A stretch of 64,000 bases of DNA, taken from Candidatus Kaiserbacteria bacterium (lineage in GTDB: Bacteria > Patescibacteriota > Minisyncoccia > Phycocordibacterales > Phycocordibacteraceae). Shown piece by piece: positions 16,001 through 48,067 of the stretch. The notes under the pieces are model-generated. The model saw only the letters and a program-made list of their open reading frames with translations, ran no database searches and was not told the origin of the DNA. The stretch is taken from positions 7,276 through 71,275 of the forward strand of contig CAWEXP010000010.1 in NCBI GenBank assembly GCA_963813065.1, in the 5' to 3' direction. How positions within the stretch are numbered: the first letter of the stretch is position 1; every line of letters starts with the position of its first letter. The position numbers and the translations under genes are program-made.

Positions 16001-16496
16001 CGCCGAACAGATTTTTCAGAATGTACGTGAGGAAAAGGATTCGCAGAGCGTGCACCTTGCCGAATGGCCCGAGGCACTCGGTATTTCGGCCGAAGAAAAA
16101 ATATTCGTCGCGCAGATGGGACGCGTTCGTGAGATTGCCTCGGCGGCGTTACAGCTACGCCAAAAGGCGAATATAAAAGTGCGACAGCCGCTCGCGAAAC
16201 TCTCTATTCCGGACGGAGACACTCTTTCAGAGGAACTTCTGCAGATTATCGCTGATGAGGTGAATGTGGAAAAAGTAATTCCCGGAGGCGCGAAGGAAAT
16301 AGTGCTCGACACCGATCTTACTCCCGAACTCGTTCTGGCGGGCGACAAACGCGAGATTGTCCGCGCTGTTGCTGAAGCGCGCAAGGCGGAAGGACTTTCT
16401 CTTAAAGACAAGGCGCATCACGAAATACGCGCAGGAGGGAAGTACAAAGTGACACTCTCGACTGGCGCTGTAGAGTTCGACCTCGTCCGCGAATAA
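13083..16496 (+). CDS. ileS: isoleucine--tRNA ligase with inserted histidine-phosphatase domain
   Basis: HYGH (HIGH-class) and KMSKK motifs, CP1 editing region, WSISRQRFW and DTWFDSGS landmarks. 1137 aa, because of a ~230 aa in-frame insertion. Confidence 0.9.
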   Translation: MPDVEKSEVAKKEEETLAFWEREHIFEKSLAQPAPKGDFVFYDGPPFATGLPHYGHIVASVIKDAIPRYKTMQGYRVPRRWGWDTHGLPIENVVEKELGFTHKKDIKQYGVEKFNERCRELVLGYVGEWKKIIPRIGRFVDMEHSYTTMDASFMESVWWVFKQIYDKGLVYEDYRSMHICPRCETTLSQQEVAEGYKDVKDISVTVKFKVTNPEKLGLSGDVYLLAWTTTPWTLPGNVALAVGKETPIAPFVYVAWKENNETVITSAAYYAKLKGAAMTPGSVLFGPQDLIGLEYEPPFDYYKKDANLKNRENGWKVYAADFVTTDTGTGIVHIAPAFGEDDMVLGKEKNLPFVQHVAYDGTMRPEVTDFAGQPVKPRSDDDKVRLGTDIAVIKYLQEHGTFFSKENIVHSYPHCWRCDTPLLNYATTSWFVEVTALKNELIEHAKKINWTPAHVKDGRFGKWLEGARDWSISRQRFWASVIPLWKDAAGGITAIGSVEELKKHTKKSGNTYFVMRHGEAEHNVADILNGEDRGRYPLTAEGRAQAIAAANVLAGERVGAIYASPFLRAQETAKIIAQKLGIPETAIITDDRLRELGFGTLEGTSYKKFLAYRDTHPIGFDEPVALGGESYQHAKNRFAEFLYELERSVSHKTILVITHGIGVETFEAVVRGAGKEESKKLLGPLHAHRGELRKFDFVPLPHNANYELDLHLPYIDNVQLVNETGEPLIRVPDVLDTWFDSGSMPYAQAHYPFEHKDDFEKTFPAQFIAEGIDQTRAWFYYLHVLSSAALDTNAFENVIVNGTVLAEDGKKMSKKLQNYPDPMLLVDTYGADAMRFYLLASPVVEAENLAFTEGGVDEVAKKNIGRLTNTLSFYALFADGTPASPTSTDLLDRWIFTRLKELVQEATAGYERYELDRAVRPVALFVDDLSAWYVRRSRDRFKEEGGGKTAALATLRYVLKEFSKVIAPSMPFIAEQIFQNVREEKDSQSVHLAEWPEALGISAEEKIFVAQMGRVREIASAALQLRQKANIKVRQPLAKLSIPDGDTLSEELLQIIADEVNVEKVIPGGAKEIVLDTDLTPELVLAGDKREIVRAVAEARKAEGLSLKDKAHHEIRAGGKYKVTLSTGAVEFDLVRE
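14590..15130 (+). other. inserted histidine phosphatase (phosphoglycerate-mutase-like) domain inside ileS
   Basis: Complete PGAM-family catalytic signature (VMRHGEAEHN ... ITHGIGVE), in-frame between the WSISRQR and DVLDTWFDSGS segments of IleRS. Confidence 0.6.
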
Positions 16497-17661: not shown

Positions 17662-19553
17662 GTGCGTTATACTGGCGGGGAATGGAACACGACGGTCTCG
17701 GCTCACTCGAACGTGCGCGCGAAGGTCTCTACGCTCCCAAGCGCGCGGCGAGCACTGCGCGCCCTGGCCTCGACACCGAGGAGTCGCGCGACTTGCCACA
17801 CGCCTGGGATGAGCGCGCGGCTCTGCGCGCCTATCGCCCGGGCCAGCACACTCGCGTCGCGGGGATTTTCTTCGCCGGCGCATTTCTCTTCTTTCTCCTT
17901 GCGCTCGCCGTCTCGGGATATTTCCTCTACTTCGGTGGCAACTCAGTCTCGGTCAACAATGTCGACATTGCGCTCCAAGGCCCGACCACCATCGCCGGCG
18001 GCGACACCTTACCGCTCTCACTCGCCATCACCAATCGCAACTCCGTCCCCATCGAAAACGCGACGATTGAAGTCGATTTCCCCGACGGTACGCGGAGCGC
18101 CGAAAATGTGCTCACCAATTATCCTCGCTACACCGAGAATCTCGGCACCATCGCACCGGGTGCGACCATCACGCGCTCGGTGAAGGCCGTCATCTTCGGT
18201 GGTAATGGCCAATCGCTCTCGCTACCGATTGCGCTTTCATACAGTATCGCCGGTTCGAACTCAGTCTTCGTAAAAAAAAGTTCGTATGCGCTCGGCATCT
18301 CGACGACGCCACTCTCGGTCTCGGTGGAGGGGCCTACCGAGGGAGTGTCCGGTCAGCCAATCACCTTAAAGCTTGTTGCACGCTCGAACGCGGCTACGTC
18401 GCTCCCGAACGTCGCGATCGCCGCTGAACTCCCGAACGGCTTCACGCTCGCCTCATCTTCGCTCGCGCTCCAGGGGTCACTTTTCCCGGTGGGCACGCTC
18501 GCGGCAGGCGCCAGCCGGACGCTCGTTGTCAGTGGCACCCTCTCGGGTGTGAGCGGTGCGCCGCAGGTATTCCATTTCACCATTGGGACTACGGGCGGGA
18601 CGAACGCGAGTGCGCTCGCCGTTTCCTATATGCAACAAGACGCAACCGTTCTCCTCACCGCGCCTTTCATCAGCACGACGCTCTCGCTCAATGGCGATAC
18701 CTCGGGTTCGAGCGTCGTCACGCCTGGTGCGCGGCAGAGCGTGACGCTCTCCTATACCAACACGCTCGACACCGCAGTCAGCGATGCTGTGGTCGAAGTC
18801 ACGCTCTCCGGTGCGGCGATTGATTATTCGAGCATCCAGACCAGTAACGGCTTCTATCAGTCGGCAACACATTCAATCGTCTTCAGTCGCGACACCGATC
18901 CATCGCTTGCGTCACTCGCGCCTGGCGCTTCGGGCCTCGGAACGTTCACCTTCCAGACATTGCCCGCAAGTTCCGCCGTGCGCGACCCGCTTATTGTGCT
19001 CTCGACCTCGGTCTCGGGTACACGCGTTGGCCAAACCAACGTTCCAGAGCAAGTAACCGCATCGAGTGTCGCGACTGCCAAGGTCTCGTCGTCGCTCTCG
19101 CTCAACGCCACGACGCTCCACTCCTCGGGCAGTATCCGCAACACGGGCCCGGTACCGCCGACGCCCGGCACGGCGACCACCTACAGCATCGTCTGGACCA
19201 TTCGTGGTGGCGGCAATGCGGTCGCGGGTGCGAGCGTCTCGGCGACGCTCCCGAGCTATGTTACGTACACCGGCCTCACGAGTGGGAGTGGTTTCTCCTA
19301 CGATGCATCATCGCGTGTGGTCTCGTGGAATGCGGGCGATCTCTCGGCGGGATCGAGCGCACAAGGAGCTTTCCAAGTTTCGCTCACCCCCTCGACCTCG
19401 CAGGAGGGGAGTGATCCGGCACTGACTACTGCGCCGGCCCTTACTGCTTTCGACCGGTATGCGCAGGTCTCGGTAACCGCCTCGGCTTCGCCGAGCACCA
19501 CCGAGATGCCCGCCGATCCGGGCTATAGCCCGACCGAGGCGAGCGTGCACTAA
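17658..19553 (+). CDS. large membrane-anchored repeat protein (surface, Ig-like/DUF11-like repeats)
   Basis: GTG start overlaps the recO stop. One N-terminal TM helix is followed by ~550 aa of Ser/Thr/Gly-rich repeated beta-domain segments. Confidence 0.55.
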   Translation: MSALYWRGMEHDGLGSLERAREGLYAPKRAASTARPGLDTEESRDLPHAWDERAALRAYRPGQHTRVAGIFFAGAFLFFLLALAVSGYFLYFGGNSVSVNNVDIALQGPTTIAGGDTLPLSLAITNRNSVPIENATIEVDFPDGTRSAENVLTNYPRYTENLGTIAPGATITRSVKAVIFGGNGQSLSLPIALSYSIAGSNSVFVKKSSYALGISTTPLSVSVEGPTEGVSGQPITLKLVARSNAATSLPNVAIAAELPNGFTLASSSLALQGSLFPVGTLAAGASRTLVVSGTLSGVSGAPQVFHFTIGTTGGTNASALAVSYMQQDATVLLTAPFISTTLSLNGDTSGSSVVTPGARQSVTLSYTNTLDTAVSDAVVEVTLSGAAIDYSSIQTSNGFYQSATHSIVFSRDTDPSLASLAPGASGLGTFTFQTLPASSAVRDPLIVLSTSVSGTRVGQTNVPEQVTASSVATAKVSSSLSLNATTLHSSGSIRNTGPVPPTPGTATTYSIVWTIRGGGNAVAGASVSATLPSYVTYTGLTSGSGFSYDASSRVVSWNAGDLSAGSSAQGAFQVSLTPSTSQEGSDPALTTAPALTAFDRYAQVSVTASASPSTTEMPADPGYSPTEASVH

Positions 19554-19580
19554 TGCCACCTTTCGTATAAGGTATCCCGT

Positions 19581-20894
19581 ATGGCCGACGCGCAACTGAT
19601 GGAAAAAATTGTCTCGCTCGCGAAGCGACGCGGCTTCATCTACCCGGGCAGTGAGATTTACGGTGGCCTCGCGGGCACTTTCGATTACGGCCCGTACGGC
19701 GTGGTCTTGAAAGAGAATATAAAAAATATCTGGCTGAAAATGTTCCGCGACGACCGTGACGACATGTATGGCGTCGATGCGGCCATTTTGATGAATCCGA
19801 AAGTGTGGGAATCCTCGGGCCATGTCGCAGGATTCTCTGATCCCTTGGTCGAGTGCGCCAAGTGCCATCACCGCTTCCGCGCCGATCAGCTCGACGATGC
19901 GACCAAGTGTCCGGACTGTGGCGGCGCTCTCGGCGAAGCGCGGCAATTTAATATGATGTTCAAGACGCATGCGGGCGCGATGGAGGACGACAGCGCAGTG
20001 GTCTACCTGCGCCCCGAGACGGCGGGTGGCATGTTTGTGAATTATAAAAATGTCGTCGACTCGCTCCACCCCAAGCTACCTTTCGGTCTCGCGCAGATCG
20101 GTAAAGCGTTCCGCAACGAGATCGCTCCGCGCGACTTCGTCTTCCGCGTGCGCGAATTCGAGCAGATGGAGATTGAATATTTTGTACGCCCGGACCAGTG
20201 GCAGGAGGCGTTCGAGGAGTGGCGCAAAGAGATGCATCGTTATGCCGCAATGGTCGGCATTCCTGCTGGCTCGGTGCATGAGCTCGAAGTGCCCGACGGA
20301 GAACGCGCGCACTACTCTAAGCGCACCATCGACTTCGAGTTCGAGTACCCCTTTGGCCGGAAGGAGCTCTGGGGTCTCGCGTATCGCACCGACTTCGATC
20401 TCTCGGCGCACCAGAATGGCTCAAGCGTGAATCTCGAATATCAAGACGAAGAAACGAAGAGCAAATTCTTGCCGCATGTCATCGAGCCGTCGCTCGGCGT
20501 CGATCGCACTCTGCTCGCTATCCTCGCAAGTGCGTATCGAGAAGATGAGATGAATGGGGAAGTGCGCACCTACCTCGCGCTGGCACCGCGCGTGGCGCCG
20601 GTGAAGGCGATGGTCGCGCCGCTGTTGAAAAATAAACCCGAGCTCGTGCAGAAGGCGGGGGAAGTACGTGATGAACTCCGTAGAATACATCCGGCCATCG
20701 CCTGGGACGACAACGGCAACATCGGCAAACGCTATCGCCGCCAGGATGAGATTGGTACGCCTTTCTGCATCACCATCGATTTCGATACGCTCGGCGACCC
20801 CTCGAGTTCCTCGGGGCAGGGAATCCTTAAGGATACGGTCACCCTCCGCGACCGCGACACGGGCACCCAGGACGACTTACGATTGAAGAGATAA
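19581..20894 (+). CDS. glyQS: glycine--tRNA ligase (class II, alpha2 type)
   Basis: Class II motifs with the GlyRS-specific N-terminus (MEKIVSLAKRRGFIYPGSEIYGGLAGTFDYGPYG) and a C-terminal anticodon-binding domain. Confidence 0.9.
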   Translation: MADAQLMEKIVSLAKRRGFIYPGSEIYGGLAGTFDYGPYGVVLKENIKNIWLKMFRDDRDDMYGVDAAILMNPKVWESSGHVAGFSDPLVECAKCHHRFRADQLDDATKCPDCGGALGEARQFNMMFKTHAGAMEDDSAVVYLRPETAGGMFVNYKNVVDSLHPKLPFGLAQIGKAFRNEIAPRDFVFRVREFEQMEIEYFVRPDQWQEAFEEWRKEMHRYAAMVGIPAGSVHELEVPDGERAHYSKRTIDFEFEYPFGRKELWGLAYRTDFDLSAHQNGSSVNLEYQDEETKSKFLPHVIEPSLGVDRTLLAILASAYREDEMNGEVRTYLALAPRVAPVKAMVAPLLKNKPELVQKAGEVRDELRRIHPAIAWDDNGNIGKRYRRQDEIGTPFCITIDFDTLGDPSSSSGQGILKDTVTLRDRDTGTQDDLRLKR

Positions 20895-20928
20895 AAACAC
20901 GGCTCAACCAGGCCATTTTATAGAGGTA

Positions 20929-20956
20929 TTGACAAGTTGTACGATTCGTGTATCAT
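20929..20956 (+). promoter_or_regulatory. sigma70-type promoter (TTGACA-N16-TATCAT) with CGATTCGTG extended -10 context
   Basis: Near-identical architecture to the promoters at 4471 and 46882. Drives the DGR target gene through a ~155 nt leader. Confidence 0.55.
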
Positions 20957-21111
20957 AGCTTCAGGACTCCTGATCCTCGGAATACCTTACGAATTCGCCC
21001 TAGCGCAGAACGGCTTACCTAGGCCCTTCTCCGCTATGGCGAACTGTCACAGCCCCTCAGCTCGCGGGTAGCGAGAAATTTCTCGGCTATCAGCTGGGGA
21101 AAGGACGTGTC

Positions 21112-21729
21112 ATGAAGTATGCGAATATGAATTGGGGCCGCATGGAAGCGATCATCAATAAGCTCGGCGGCGAAGCCGGTGCGGACGATTTCTTGGCTGG
21201 CAAGACTGTCGTCGGCAAGCCCGGCACCGTGACCAAGCTCAAGAGCTCGGCTTCGCCGAAGGTTCTCGCGGGCCTCCTCGAACCAGTCGGCGAGCCAGTT
21301 AAGCTCGTGGCGGCGAACCATTTCGTCGCTCGCGAAAAATTCATTGTGAACGTGAACGGCGAGCTACCGATCTCGGCCTCGGCGACAACTTCAAGACCAA
21401 TTTCTTGGATGTTGTCGAAGAGAGTGTAAGACCCATGACGGTCAGGCAACGCAAACTCTTACGGCGCTCGGTCGACACTCCGATTCTTGCCGCTCTCGGC
21501 GACAAGGACGTGGCGAAGATTGTGAGGGCCAGAATGGCTCTCGCACACGTCTTCAGTTTCCTCAAGACGGCGGATCGTTCCAAGTGGTTCATCTTTTATG
21601 TCGCCGACGCGAAGGGGAATGTCTGGGCCGTGAACGCGGTACTGGGGCGATGGCGGCTGGAGCCTCGAGGCCAGCTCGGTTTTGAACCCGAACGAGTGGC
21701 TTGAGGGTGACCACGTCGTCTCTCGCTGA
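21112..21729 (+). CDS. DGR target (variable) protein, disrupted by two compensating frameshifts
   Basis: Frame 1 (21112-21429), frame 0 (21405 to ~21640), then frame 1 again through the VR to TGA at 21727-21729. The C-terminal VR encodes W-x-DGGW-x-LEA-x-SVLNPNEW, mirroring the TR. Confidence 0.55.
21622..21726 (+). repeat. DGR variable repeat VR1
   Basis: ~105 bp, ~90% identical to TR1 (22048-22152). Mismatches are G/C/T in VR where TR has A, plus a 1 nt indel. The identical GC-rich 3' end CCACGTCGTCTCTCGCT is a putative IMH. Confidence 0.8.
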
Positions 21730-22047
21730 TCCTTCGCAACTCAACATAAGACTCTCGGACCCTCTGAACTTTTGTCGCTTTGGCGGCACTGGAACAGAGG
21801 GTCTTTCTTTTTGGTACACTAATACATGAGGAAGTTATGGTGTGCAGGCTATGGCTCGTACGCAACTCCTCGGGTCTATACGGGAGAGAATCGCGCGAGG
21901 TACGCCAATCGCGAGCGTGTCTGTGCAGACTCTAAAAAAAGAATAGGATCGGTGCACCGCGCTGGCGGACTTCTACGTCCCACATACGATACAGCCCGGA
22001 GAACGTTCGAAGGGCAGTGGCAGAGATGGCGCAGTGCACATACCGTT

Positions 22048-22152
22048 TCTGGGCCGTGAACGCGAACTGGAACGATGGCGGCTGGAACCTCGAAGCCAAC
22101 TCGGTTTTGAACCCGAATGAGTGGAATGAGGGTAACCACGTCGTCTCTCGCT
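22048..22152 (+). repeat. DGR template repeat TR1
   Basis: The adenine-rich copy (many AAC codons: NANWNDGGWNLEANSVLNPNEWNEGNHVVSR). Immediately followed by a GC hairpin plus T-run, and adjacent to avd and RT. Confidence 0.8.
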
Positions 22153-22519
22153 ACCCATTTCTTTCCCCGCCCGCCCGAGGCGGGGTTTTAGTAAGAACAC
22201 CCTTGCGCCAGCCGCCTGTCATACGTCCTATTTCTTCTATACCTTCTGCAATCTGCACGTATTGTGTATTTGACATCAACTTTGACTCCCATGCTATCTG
22301 CAAGAAAAACCGCAACGAATCTGTTGTGCCTATGGAAGTACCAAGGAGAGCGGGCTTATTCGCCATGTCCGCGAAGCTTGCTCTGCGCAGAGTCTCAAGT
22401 AAATCGAGCAGGAGCGTATCTATTCGCGCGCCGATGCCGAAGCGTTCGTCGCGTGACATGTTGCGTCGCACTGGTAGCCAGACGCGGTAGAGGTCTTTGG
22501 TGCGCTCCACGACCGCCAC
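22151..22519 (-). CDS. avd: DGR accessory variability determinant (Avd-like four-helix-bundle protein)
   Basis: 122 aa. The C-terminal QIAEGIEEIGRMTGGWRKG resembles the bAvd C-terminus (LIAEVGRILGSWIARVNRK). Divergent from the RT. The last codons overlap the TR1 3' hairpin, so the true C-terminus is uncertain. Confidence 0.65.
   Translation of the reverse strand: MAVVERTKDLYRVWLPVRRNMSRDERFGIGARIDTLLLDLLETLRRASFADMANKPALLGTSIGTTDSLRFFLQIAWESKLMSNTQYVQIAEGIEEIGRMTGGWRKGVLTKTPPRAGGERNG
22165..22190 (+). terminator. GC hairpin + T-run directly 3' of TR1
   Basis: CCCCGCC-CGCCCGA-GGCGGGG hairpin followed by TTTT. Confidence 0.55.
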
Positions 22520-22554
22520 AAAGGTCCGGGGGGGGGGGTAGAGCTAGATGCTGT

Positions 22555-23536
22555 ATGCAAAACCGCTTCACTCATACCTACGACGATATCATCTCTGCCG
22601 AGAATCTGCTCGACGCATGGAATGAATTTCTAAAAGGAAAGCGCAAGAAAGCCGATGTCATCGAATTCTCGCGCTTTCTCATGCGCCATATCTCCCAGCT
22701 ACATTATGACCTCAAATACAAAACATACACGCATGGTGGATATCAAGCATTCAAGAATCAGTGATCCCAAGCCTCGTGATATTCATAAGGCAACTGTCCG
22801 CGACAGGCTTTTGCACCATGCGGTGTATCGCCAGCTCTATCCTCTTTTTGACAGAACCTTTATTTCCGACTCGTACTCGTGCCGCCTGGGGAAGGGTACG
22901 CATCGCGCGATGAATAGTTTCCGGCGATATGCGTACCAGGCGAGCAAGAATCATACGAAAACACTCTGGGTGCTCAAGTGCGACATACGCAAGTTTTTTG
23001 CCTCGATTGATCACGAGATACTTTTCGCTATCTTACGACGACATATTTCTGATGACCGCACGCTCGTGTTGCTCCAAACTATTATCGAGAGTTTTTGTTC
23101 AACACCAGGTGTCGCACAAAAAGGTCTTCCGCTCGGCAACCTCACCAGCCAGCTCCTCGTGAACATTTACATGAACGAGTTCGACCAGTTCGTGAAGCAC
23201 GATCTGAAAATAAAATACTATGTACGCTACGCGGATGACTTTGTCGTGTTTTCGCATGACCGCGAATCGCTACGAAAAACACTTCCATATATAGAAGTGT
23301 TTTTACGAGACACACTGAAACTAGAAATGCATCCGAATAAAGTTTCAATTGCGACTTTGGCTTCTGGGGTCGACTTCCTCGGCTGGGTACACTTTCCTAA
23401 TCACCGCGTCTTGCGCACGGCGACCAAGCGATGGATACTCAAGGCATTACGCGGGAATCCAAAAGAAACAACTCGCGCGTCGTATCGGGGCATGCTCTCG
23501 CACGGGAATGCACATAAGCTACAAATTTTGCTATAG
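22555..23536 (+). CDS. DGR reverse transcriptase (frameshift near 22750)
   Basis: N-terminal part in the frame of ATG 22555 (YDDIISAENLLDAWNEFLKGKRK...), remainder in the 22655 frame. RT motifs include PKPRDIHKATVRDRLLHHAV, the DGR-diagnostic LGNLTSQ (SQ instead of the group II SP) and YADD (VRYADDFVVF). Confidence 0.85.
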
Positions 23537-26294: not shown

Positions 26295-26388
26295 AATTGA
26301 CAATTCAGAAATAAAGTTCTAAGCTCGCGGCAGTTGCGTAGCACTTTGTGGTTCACATACCGGAGCAAATCCGGAGAAAGGCAGACTC

Positions 26389-27519
26389 ATGCTCAAGGCA
26401 TGGCGATACGTACGATGGTGCACACTCCTCATTAGTTTGCTTGTTGAGGCGGGAGTCTTCTGGCTGTCCGCACCTTCGGGCGATTTCCTCACCAAAGCAT
26501 TATCCCCGTGGCCGTGGATATGGATGGGGTTCGTGGCTGGCAGTTTGGCTTGGTTATTCTTCGAGCTCACCATCCTCATCTTCAAAGGCAAGGGGCGAAT
26601 TAATGCCGAGCTGGACGAAGATGGGAATGAGGAGATTCGATACCAAACCGTTCCGCACTGGCTCGAACCCATGCGCGAAATCCGCAAACATTCGGCGACC
26701 TGGTACGGGATTTGGGTCCCGGTGTGGATTGCGCTTGCTTCCACGACCTATCTCGTTGGCTGGGTCGTCTGGTTGGCTTCTCGTTTTCCCGAGGCGCTCT
26801 CGCTCTGGTCAGTCGATGCGTGTGCGTTTATCGAAACGCACTTCGTCGGGTTCTTGGCGATTATCGGCGTTCCGCTCGAAGGCTTGCTCAAGGCCATTCC
26901 AGCATTCCTTACCCAACTCCACGACACTGCTCGCGAGGACACCACCCTCACGTTCGTCCTGGTGGGGGTCGTATGGCTGTCATTGCATGCGTTCGAATGG
27001 GGATTACGGCGCTGGAAGATGCCACACTTCATCACTCGCTTGGCGCATCTTGGCCAATGGATAACGGTGTTGGTTGGCTTCTATGCTCTCATGGCCACAG
27101 AATGGTTTGACTGGCTCGCGCCCGTCTATACCTTCTTGCCACACAATGCGATCGTTGCGGTCGGCTATATGCCTCTTGGTCTCATTGCGCCACTGTATTA
27201 TGTGCCGCATGTTGCCGAGTGGCTTTCCACGCGCTATGCGCTCATCGTCGATCGCAAGTCGTCCGACGCCTATTTGCTCATTTGCTCCGGCGTCTTCGAC
27301 TTCATCAAGGAGCGAATATCCCTCGAACGTGTGGTAGATACCAAACTCTTTCAGCGTTGGTGGCAGAGGCCGCTCAAGATCGGCAATCTGACGCTTATCG
27401 AGACCGGCGGTGAAAAAGAGATTCTCGACATTTGGGATCCAAGGCATCTCGATCGGGAAATCAACAAGTGCATCACTCGTCGGCGGCGTCGGCAACGTGG
27501 TGACGAAATAGTCGATTAG
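26389..27519 (+). CDS. polytopic membrane protein, hypothetical
   Basis: 376 aa with >8 predicted TM helices and an Arg-rich C-terminal tail. No family recognised. Confidence 0.5.
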   Translation: MLKAWRYVRWCTLLISLLVEAGVFWLSAPSGDFLTKALSPWPWIWMGFVAGSLAWLFFELTILIFKGKGRINAELDEDGNEEIRYQTVPHWLEPMREIRKHSATWYGIWVPVWIALASTTYLVGWVVWLASRFPEALSLWSVDACAFIETHFVGFLAIIGVPLEGLLKAIPAFLTQLHDTAREDTTLTFVLVGVVWLSLHAFEWGLRRWKMPHFITRLAHLGQWITVLVGFYALMATEWFDWLAPVYTFLPHNAIVAVGYMPLGLIAPLYYVPHVAEWLSTRYALIVDRKSSDAYLLICSGVFDFIKERISLERVVDTKLFQRWWQRPLKIGNLTLIETGGEKEILDIWDPRHLDREINKCITRRRRRQRGDEIVD

Positions 27520-46969: not shown

Positions 46970-47503
46970 ATGCGTACACTCTTTAGCGGCATAGCCGCTC
47001 TCGTGCTTGCCTTTACTCTCGGCGCGTGTGGTGACAGTTCTGGCCCGACCACGATTCAATCCGTCGGCCAGATTACCGTGGACGGCACACAAAACCGTTC
47101 ACAAGCCATTTTTCTAGGCCGTTATGATTGGGCCAACAGCAACATCAATGACGCGAATTTCCCTGCGCACCCGCAAGGCATTCGCGCCGAAGCAATGGTG
47201 CTCGTTGCATTCAATCGCTCGATTTCGTCCGAGAATGCAGATGCCGAAATACGAGCCCGCGGCTTCCGCGCAGCGAATCTTGATGAGTGTCTCGCATATG
47301 GAGCGGCAGTGGCAAGAGCCAGAGGGATTTACAACCTCGCTCCGCCGAGTAACCCGATCGTGTGTCTTGGGCAGTCGGCGCAGGTTGACGGCAATCGCTG
47401 CGTCCCTGGGTTCTGGAGCGGCTTTGGCTACTGGAGGCTCGACCTCGGCCGCTGGGCGAGTGACTGGCGCTCCGACTTTCGCTTCCTCGCCGCTCGCACT
47501 TAG
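46970..47503 (+). CDS. lipoprotein, second DGR-type target protein
   Basis: Signal peptide with lipobox (LAFTLGAC). The C-terminal 43 aa are encoded by VR2 (SAQVDGNRCVPGFWSGFGYWRLDLGRWASDWRSDFRFLAART). Confidence 0.6.
   Translation: MRTLFSGIAALVLAFTLGACGDSSGPTTIQSVGQITVDGTQNRSQAIFLGRYDWANSNINDANFPAHPQGIRAEAMVLVAFNRSISSENADAEIRARGFRAANLDECLAYGAAVARARGIYNLAPPSNPIVCLGQSAQVDGNRCVPGFWSGFGYWRLDLGRWASDWRSDFRFLAART
47375..47500 (+). repeat. DGR variable repeat VR2
   Basis: ~126 bp homologous to TR2 (47851-47976). ~22 mismatches, ~18 at positions where TR2 has A. Shared 3' end TCGCTTCCTCGCCG. Confidence 0.75.
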
Positions 47504-47561: not shown

Positions 47562-47592
47562 CCGCGCGGCTTCCCAGCCGCGCGGTCTTTGT
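47562..47592 (+). terminator. GC hairpin + T-rich run 60 nt after VR2
   Basis: CCGCGCGGC-TTCCCA-GCCGCGCGG hairpin followed by TCTTTGT. Confidence 0.5.
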
Positions 47593-47850
47593 ATAAAATA
47601 GATCCGACAGGTGAATAGTCACCGGCGGTTACGGCTTCCGGCTACCTGTCCGCAACCTCTGTTGCCAGAATTCGAGCGGCCACGGCTTCTCGGAGCGTGT
47701 GGCGGAGATTGTCCAAAATCGAAGGACTTGTTGGTGCGAGATGCTGGCGGATTAGAGCTTTTTGTAGCTCGAGATCCCAAACAAGATTCAATCCGGAGAT
47801 CAGCCGCAAGGCTTTCTATGGATGGTGGCATGGATGGCATCTCGTACTCA

Positions 47851-47976
47851 TCGGCGCAGGTTGACGGCAATCGCAACGTCCCTGAATTCTGGAACGACAA
47901 CGGCAACTGGAAGCTCGACCTCGACAACTGGGCGAATGACTGGAACTCCGACTATCGCTTCCTCGCCGTTCGCAAC
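47851..47976 (+). repeat. DGR template repeat TR2 (no adjacent RT)
   Basis: Adenine/AAC-rich copy encoding NRNVPEFWNDNGNWKLDLDNWANDWNSDYRFLAVRNN. Followed by a strong GC hairpin plus T-run at 47993-48036. Confidence 0.7.
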
Positions 47977-48067
47977 AATTATTGATTTACCGCGCGACCC
48001 CGGCGATTTTCGTCGGGGTCGCGGGTTTTTGCTTTTATCTGCCGAAGCGACTACACTACCTCGGTCT

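Follow-up and report, generated by a model that had tools for sequence, protein, structure and literature searches.

The locus considered here raises two questions: whether a pair of near-identical repeats beside a reverse transcriptase (RT) gene belongs to a diversity-generating retroelement (DGR), and whether such an element is still intact, given the frameshifts that appear to interrupt both its RT and its putative target gene. The locus lies within 64,000 nt of contig CAWEXP010000010.1 (GenBank assembly GCA_963813065.1, positions 7,276 to 71,275, forward strand) from a Candidatus Kaiserbacteria bacterium, a stretch referred to below as the window, whose own numbering is used throughout. 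The locus is very probably a chromosomal DGR of the clade found in Patescibacteria, also known as the Candidate Phyla Radiation (CPR), with the layout termed B3, i.e. a target gene ending in a variable repeat (VR), a template repeat (TR), a reverse-strand avd gene, and an RT gene. As such, it is an ordinary member of a well-documented clade with hundreds of members, and the DGR itself matters little as one more example of that clade. The leads of interest lie past the DGR itself: a leader RNA upstream of the template, a solo TR module, a G tract between avd and the RT, and the 5' leader of the target family.

The DGR interpretation was first put forward in an earlier note made from the sequence of the window, which described a near-repeat of ~90% identity downstream of the target gene 3' end, with mismatches concentrated at adenines of the downstream copy. 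TR1 and VR1 are in fact 89.6% identical over 106 alignment columns, their starts being separated by 426 nt, and once the mismatches of this alignment are tabulated, nine of the 10 substitutions fall at TR adenines (six A>G, two A>T, and one A>C). With 24 adenines among the 105 nt of TR1, the hypergeometric probability of this bias is 3.7e-6. The downstream copy is also built as the note had read it, containing six AAC and two AAT codons and translating in the VR frame as WAVNANWNDGGWNLEANSVLNPNEWNEGNHVVSR. TR1 is non-coding and sits 403 nt upstream of the RT start, while VR1 lies within the 3' end of the target gene. Beyond the last mismatch, both copies do share an identical end of 18 nt, and there is no further copy of this TR1 end elsewhere in the 64-kb window. 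By analogy to the Bordetella model, the shared end may play the homing role of an initiation of mutagenic homing (IMH) site. A strong inverted repeat begins 30 nt downstream of VR1. This repeat is predicted to be the target gene terminator and may also correspond to the GC-rich repeat found after the IMH in other DGRs.

The enzymes encoded beside the repeats point in the same direction. The RT carries the LGNLTSQ and YADD motifs that had been recognized in its sequence, and its best match among all PDB sequences is 8ub7_A, a 328-aa protein annotated as "Reverse transcriptase" (E=7e-44), which we take to be the DGR RT of Bordetella phage BPP-1. The group II intron RT GsI-IIC follows at E=8e-24 and retron RTs at no better than 3e-18, so that the clustering with group II intron or retron RTs that had been named as a refuting outcome is not what the search returned, the class assignment being one of PDB sequence-search E values. 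The minus-strand gene between TR1 and the RT is Avd-like as suspected, since its product exceeds the cutoff of the Pfam bAvd family; against the NCBIfam model NF033474 (DivGenRetAVD) it scores 62.6 bits, which is under the 80-bit cutoff. An identical Avd protein is encoded by an independently assembled contig, L171. We also note that the GC content of the RT gene (47%) is 9 points lower than that of the window (56%), which would be consistent with a horizontally moving cassette.

If the element were not a DGR, the repeats would have to be an ordinary duplication of a gene end that happens to lie beside an unrelated retron, group II intron, or defence RT. The NCBIfam search could be read in this manner, as its top model for the RT is a group II intron RT/maturase (152.8 bits against a 300-bit cutoff) and no DGR RT model is among the NCBIfam families matched. 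However, two independent repeat pairs in the window show the adenine bias (p=4e-6 and p=2e-11), the RT has the SQ motif and an adjacent Avd, its E value for the presumed Bordetella DGR RT is better by 20 orders of magnitude than that for a group II RT, and the same anatomy recurs in >100 relatives. Furthermore, a cmscan search of positions 20800-22700 (E up to 1) yielded no Rfam match to a group II intron or retron RNA. An ordinary duplication is therefore effectively refuted.

When examining the distribution of related RTs, it is evident that the element is typical of its clade. Species-representative genomes contain at least 584 relatives and metagenomes at least 586, and nearly all of the genome records are named as Patescibacteria or CPR lineages; the nearest relatives of both the RT and the neighboring glycyl-tRNA synthetase (GlyRS) are named Paceibacterota, Kaiserbacteria, and similar. 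We retrieved 160 loci with RTs of 61-77% identity. Every one of these with enough upstream sequence (>140) exhibits the same arrangement, namely VR(+), a spacer with a median length of 331 nt, TR(+), avd(-), and RT(+). Adenine-biased TR/VR pairs were found at 105 loci (e.g. 20 of 21 mismatches in L001 and 16 of 17 in L006). The VR classes of the clade are diverse, and the VVSR class to which VR1 belongs accounts for about 19 of the 105. The divergent orientation of avd and the RT, which the earlier note had singled out as a peculiarity, is thus real, but it is the norm of the clade, being invariant among the related loci with enough upstream sequence and already published as architecture B3. 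TR-(avd)-RT in this architecture is reported for 90% of CPR DGRs (Wu et al. 2018, PMC5758913), and it corresponds to DGR clade 2, which is restricted to Patescibacteria (Roux et al. 2021, PMC8144416). Like other CPR DGRs of the B3 type, the element has the same order and orientation of genes, a Patescibacterial host, and a chromosomal location, and nothing essential differs. The small target, which has no recognizable domain or membrane anchor, is likewise as reported for the clade (PMC5758913, PMC8144416). Module 1, as we refer to the element with its target, is flanked by the GlyRS gene and a permease gene, with the methionyl-tRNA synthetase (MetRS) gene following the permease.

The target family provides further support for this reading. 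Once repaired, the 205-aa target 1 aligns end to end with 44 homologs of about 200 aa, and this alignment confirms the locations of both target frameshifts. The family is conserved except in its C-terminal segment, WAVxAxWxxxGWxVxAxSVxxPxxWxxGxxVVSR, in which x is hypervariable. Since the hypervariable positions are those of the VR, the family is shown to be a recurrent DGR target. As in Treponema TvpA, BPP-1 Mtd, and other variable proteins of the C-type lectin (CLec) fold, the VR covers the C-terminal ~35 residues, and its variable positions are interspersed with a conserved scaffold of Trp, Gly, and Pro. Unlike those proteins, target 1 has no match in Pfam or NCBIfam, no significant Foldseek hit in the PDB and BFVD, and no solved relative detectable with its family profile; the family has only a weak signal of a C-type-lectin-like fold. 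Neither does the protein carry a signal peptide. The consensus promoter that had been proposed ahead of the target gene is present, and TTGACA...TATAAT is retained upstream of the gene family in related loci. Between promoter and gene, the 5' leader contains a long hairpin (TTCGCC.TAGC..AGA ... TC.GCT.TGGCGAA) kept in 18 loci, including orphan copies of the target without a DGR (examples in relatives are L001:5801-6000, L004:5786-5985, and L008:1-154). The leader had no Rfam match in the aforementioned scan and is a candidate cis-regulatory RNA.

Orphan copies of target 1, i.e. those without TR, avd, or RT within 6 kb, were encountered at L004:6001-6603, L008, and L009, one of the orphan copies being in a Sphingomonas genome (P0030). 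The copy at L004:6001-6603 is syntenic with 21112-21729 of the window and lies between GlyRS and permease genes, where no TR, avd, or RT is found. The cassette is accordingly not fixed at this position, and DGR cassettes are gained and lost around a persistent target gene. The possibility that the L004 target is served in trans by the RT of L091, located 150 kb away on the same 693-kb contig, was considered and rejected, as the TR of L091 is of another class and does not match the L004 VR. The L004 copy is an orphan.

A structured RNA immediately ahead of the template is conserved in this clade. The spacer between VR1 and TR1 is better conserved than the target itself, with a mean column identity of 87% (in a 514-column alignment that includes TR1) versus 61-65% identity among the targets. 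Over the 127 nt preceding TR, an alignment of 80 loci yields a three-way junction, for which RNAalifold gives 20 pairs, compensatory changes occurring in 18. Pairing is possible in 96.5% of the alignment cells, compared with 73.8% in shuffled alignments and 30-52% with slid partners, and compensatory cells number 419 versus 117 in the shuffles, none of 500 reaching the observed value. The junction columns dominated by G-U pairs are compatible with the plus strand only, which is the sense of TR. Further upstream are two covarying hairpins (stem-loops SL-A and SL-B) that share a common apical motif. A covariance model of the junction, R1, scores 105.9 bits at the window leader and matches 52 loci outside of its building set, all but one on the RT strand and upstream of the RT at the usual place of the junction (L033:3358-3485 is one example of the leader among relatives). 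R1 has no match in the orphan-target loci. The scan of 20800-22700 returned zero Rfam 15 matches for the leader. Folding of the whole TR RNA as a single sequence is not significant (z=-0.98), so it is covariation, and only covariation, that carries the claim of structure. A -10-like element upstream of the leader, with a consensus derived from 103 loci, would act as its promoter.

Sequences on the other side of TR are conserved as well. According to a per-sequence hairpin search, 93 of 106 related loci have a perfect hairpin of 5-12 bp, trailed by at least four T residues, about 12 nt past the end of TR. This hairpin exhibits compensatory changes among relatives, while its U-tract coincides with Lys codons of the Avd tail. 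RNAalifold predicts no pairs past TR, because loop lengths vary. Based upon its form and position, the hairpin is predicted to be either terminator-like or similar to an Avd-binding stem-loop. Past the hairpin, the third-codon positions of avd approach maximal entropy (1.8-2.0 bits) and are thus unconstrained, so that no conserved antisense RNA extends inside avd beyond this point. Lastly, a leader strand a (consensus AAAUGAAGA) is complementary to strand a' in the linker after TR (consensus UCUUCAUUU). Among the loci, 81% of cells can pair, compared with 65±1.2% when partners are swapped among loci (0 of 1000 swaps reach the observed value) and 47-55% in slid controls, and cognate duplexes are more stable than non-cognate ones (Mann-Whitney p=1e-8). 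The a/a' pairing emerged from an unbiased helix scan of the better alignments; the same scan on a poor global alignment gave none. Support for this putative duplex is weaker than for the local helices.

A second module in the same window presents what amounts to a natural experiment, since its template RNA carries the same kind of leader and hairpin, with neither avd nor an RT beside it. VR2, within target gene 2, and TR2 differ at 19 positions, 17 of which are TR adenines (p=2e-11), and the pair is unrelated to TR1/VR1. R1 matches between VR2 and TR2 (47704-47858) with 65.4 bits (E about 1e-14), all of its pairs being canonical, and an a/a' pair of different sequence is possible (AAAUCGA with UUGAUUU). 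The gene that follows encodes an unrelated helix-turn-helix protein, and the downstream sequence is unlike that of module 1. That module 2 has retained the leader and hairpin without an adjacent avd or RT argues that these are the parts required by the enzyme. The 64-kb window encodes one RT and one Avd, both at 22.1-23.5 kb, and this pair probably serves module 2 in trans from 25 kb away; one RT-Avd pair acting upon two self-contained TR RNA genes would be the simplest reading. There are published cases of DGRs that have two or more TRs (PMC6642488). With regard to its product, the lipoprotein-type signal of target 2 suggests surface display. The targets of Legionella LdtA-type DGRs are lipoproteins, and it is in this signal that target 2 resembles them; it is not known to be related to LdtA in sequence, is located 25 kb away from the RT, and comes with a TR of its own.

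These features can be compared with the best characterized system, BPP-1 (mtd-avd-TR-brt). Taking 8ub7 as the BPP-1 RT, the RT of the window has its closest solved relative in that system, and the two elements have in common an Avd, an AAC-rich template, a VR at the target 3' end, an IMH-like end, and a downstream inverted repeat. They differ in that avd is inverted here and placed between TR and the RT, and in that the IMH and its TR counterpart are identical, a condition also reported in some DGRs (Wu et al. 2018, PMC5758913). In BPP-1, cDNA synthesis depends upon 20 nt upstream of TR and a structured downstream spacer of 140 nt, which comprises an Avd-binding stem-loop after TR, a priming adenosine, a strand complementary to the upstream segment, and an RT-binding stem-loop; similar elements were predicted by Handa et al. 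in other DGRs from the 40 nt before TR and the 100 nt after it (bioRxiv 10.1101/2023.10.23.563531). The element described here likewise has a stem-loop directly after TR, where BPP-1 has the Avd-binding one, and sequences before and after TR that can pair, much like the 'cPRT Stop' duplex of BPP-1 (bioRxiv 10.1101/2023.10.23.563531). The post-TR hairpin may correspond to the Avd-binding stem-loop and the a/a' duplex may correspond to the upstream-downstream duplex. Unlike BPP-1, the conserved structured RNA lies mainly 5' of TR, beyond the region examined by Handa et al., and past the one hairpin, the downstream flank is antisense avd in module 1 and unrelated sequence in module 2. By this comparison, the leader would be the functional counterpart of the Bordetella spacer.

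It is possible, if still somewhat short of probable, that the RT-Avd complexes of the B3 clade recognize an RNA that is arranged unlike that of Bordetella, with a multi-helix domain of ~220 nt 5' of TR, a single hairpin with a U-tract 3' of it, and a leader strand pairing with the linker. Such an RNA would be encoded by a portable TR RNA gene, several of which could be served in trans, it would constitute an undescribed RNA family, and its priming would differ from the model of 2'-OH cis-priming from a 3' spacer. Mechanistic work has so far been based upon the Bordetella RNA, in which the functional elements are downstream of the template, and therein may lie the utility of a by-product of this analysis: an alignment of >100 CPR DGR loci in which a structured RNA ahead of the template is conserved. 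In the DGR literature that we searched, which did not take in Paul et al. 2017, reportedly the first survey of CPR DGRs, we found no description of a covarying leader of ~220 nt 5' of TR, of a near-universal post-TR hairpin with a U-tract, of a solo TR-RNA/target module 25 kb from its RT, or of a G8-12 tract between avd and the RT.

Based upon these features, the functioning of the element can be outlined. A plus-strand RNA of about 360 nt would be transcribed from the -10-like element just past the target terminator, consisting of the structured leader of ~220 nt, the 105-nt template repeat, and the hairpin with its U-tract. The RT-Avd complex would reverse transcribe the template, misincorporating opposite adenines, and the resulting cDNA would replace the last ~100 nt of the target gene. 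In this way, about eight Asn-templated codons could be recoded on the C-terminal surface of a small protein without a signal peptide. Presumably, the same RT-Avd would also act in trans upon the second TR RNA, 25 kb off, to diversify a lipoprotein. Of these steps, we infer the start and end of the TR RNA, its priming, the retrohoming, the trans action upon module 2, and activity at the present day.

Whether the element is intact depends upon the frameshifts. The earlier note had considered the contig to be indel-prone, and a comparison with contigs built from short reads of the same strain (Logan assembly of ERR11630400) bears this out, as there are five single-base indel discrepancies in 16.3 kb, or about one per 3.3 kb. 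All five are specific to the window assembly, where they disrupt the reading frames of isoleucyl-tRNA synthetase (IleRS), the RT, the single-stranded DNA-binding protein (SSB), ribosomal protein S18, and elongation factor P (EF-P). Similarly, tblastn with the proteins of the syntenic metagenomic contig L004 (693 kb) reveals frame switches within the SSB, S18, and EF-P genes of the window. A previous view that the contig was free of indels, derived from Pfam matches in which six overlapping same-strand pairs of open reading frames appeared as complete and distinct genes, was overturned by these comparisons. The extra base in the RT is absent from L171, so the RT is intact in an independent assembly and its frameshift is confirmed as an assembly error, as had been supposed. 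Consequently, other apparent pseudogenes in the window, whose source contig is 173,589 bp long, are to be distrusted. Apparent pseudogenes in long contigs should be compared with independent assemblies before an element is declared dead.

The two target gene frameshifts are a different matter, and with several other points they weigh against the element being a functional DGR as described. They fall outside of all independent contigs: L171 ends at 21721, inside the VR1 3' end, which may be a hint of a VR that is polymorphic in the population, and none was found over 19241-21720 (GlyRS and the 623-aa protein upstream had no exact match, a GlyRS homology search gave back the source contig only, and RecO led to L172, which ends at 19240). 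At about one error per 3.3 kb, two in a single 618-nt gene would be expected with a probability of ~2%, unless VR heterogeneity caused one of them. The tenth TR1/VR1 mismatch, a T>C at 22118, is not at an adenine. VR polymorphism and current activity are predicted from assembled sequence, the promoter, terminator, and RNA ends are consensus-level predictions, and the RT for module 2 could lie outside of the 64-kb window.

From such observations, it could be argued that the DGR is real while module 1 is decaying, its target being a pseudogene truncated at residue 105 by a -1 frameshift, with VR1 as a record of past mutagenesis. The only available sequence of the target contains both frameshifts, the record of the source contig lists a truncated product of 105 aa, the measured rate makes two chance errors within 618 nt improbable, and the syntenic relative keeps its target without a cassette, showing that cassettes and targets do separate. 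We nevertheless consider decay quite improbable, as all five of the checkable indels are specific to the assembly and strike essential genes as well as the RT, the first target indel falls within a short stretch of G/C, the second is in the VR, where a mixed population can distort the consensus, and apart from the two indels, the target aligns to its homologs without stops or further breaks of frame. Both frameshifts are presumably assembly errors, and the second could be a consensus artefact of a heterogeneous VR.

The second frameshift allows another explanation, namely that the 1-nt insertion in VR1 at 21638-21640 is a genuine product of DGR slippage, in which case the gene would be inactivated only transiently, as a null allele open to repair by the following round of retrohoming. 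The insertion is exactly opposite an AAC codon of TR1, and in the survey of Wu et al. (PMC5758913), TR and VR differ in length in 7% of DGRs, with 74% of the indels adjoining AAC and some of them causing frameshifts. Given that the contig has a measurable indel error rate, we regard slippage as unlikely; L171, which stops at 21721, short of the insertion site, offers no direct evidence for or against it. Coordinates of all features are collected in the table.

Table. Features of the two modules and short-read contigs compared with the window
Feature	Position in window	Strand	Remarks
Sigma-70-like promoter of target gene 1	20929-20956	+	TTGACA-16-TATCAT, 11/12 consensus matches
5' leader of target gene 1, ~150 nt	20957-21111	+	Conserved, apparently structured
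Target gene 1	21112-21729	+	205 aa once repaired; 1-nt deletion by 21368/9, 1-nt insertion at 21638-21640
VR1, variable repeat	21622-21727	+	Ends at target stop codon; from TR1 alignment and hypervariable positions in family alignment
IMH-like 3' end	21710-21727	+	18 nt past last mismatch, identical to TR1 22135-22152
Long inverted repeat and T-run downstream of VR1	21757-21812	+	-28.9 kcal/mol, z=-3.3; kept in close relatives
Extended -10-like element of TR RNA	21812-21820	+	TGgTACACT; clade consensus TTTTTTTTTGaTAtAaT from 103 loci
Structured TR RNA leader	21828-22047	+	SL-A ~21840-21863; SL-B ~21891-21914; A-run with strand a 21938-21943; three-way junction
Helices of the three-way junction	P1 21952-21963/22028-22039; P2 21967-21970/21977-21980; P3 21994-21997/22012-22015		
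TR1, template repeat	22048-22152	+	Non-coding; 105 nt
Linker strand a', hairpin, and TTTT	22159-22189	+	a' 22159-22164; CCCCGCC-loop-GGCGGGG 22165-22185; overlaps Avd tail codons
avd	22151-22519	-	Divergent from RT; Pfam PF22296 bAvd, 49.9 bits (cutoff 40)
G11 homopolymer	22528-22538		In 35-nt avd-RT intergenic region; equal length in L171
DGR RT	22555-23536	+	326 aa after repair; Pfam RVT_1; LGNLTSQ, YADD; extra A at 22756/7
Target gene 2	46970-47503	+	177 aa; lipoprotein-type signal ...LAFTLGAC; no Pfam family
VR2	47375-47498	+	Within target gene 2
Second TR RNA gene	47590-48030	+	-10-like TGTATAAAAT 47590-47599; junction leader 47704-47858; hairpin and T5 47990-48030
TR2	47851-47974	+	Starts at 3' end of R1 match
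Short-read contig L172	11606-19240		1 substitution; window lacks 1 base at 16088 (IleRS)
Short-read contig L171	21721-22901		Identical save the window's extra base at 22756 (RT frameshift)
Short-read contig L170	23575-31032		0 mismatches; window has 1 extra base at each of 29068 (SSB), 29516 (S18), and 30700 (EF-P)

The G tract between avd and the RT is also a feature of the clade. In 135 of 148 related loci, a tract of at least six G residues (mode 9-10) precedes the RT start by about 15-45 nt, and in two assemblies of one DGR (L001 and L013), its length differs by one G. The tract could be a phase-variable switch or else a ribosome- or promoter-related element. Outside of the element itself, the window and L004 differ at two places in the vicinity: between its GlyRS gene and the target, L004 carries a PaaX-like gene for which the window has no equivalent, and about 1.5 kb between the MetRS and TatD genes of the window, which lacks a counterpart in L004, contains a stop-to-stop frame of 399 codons (26323-27519).

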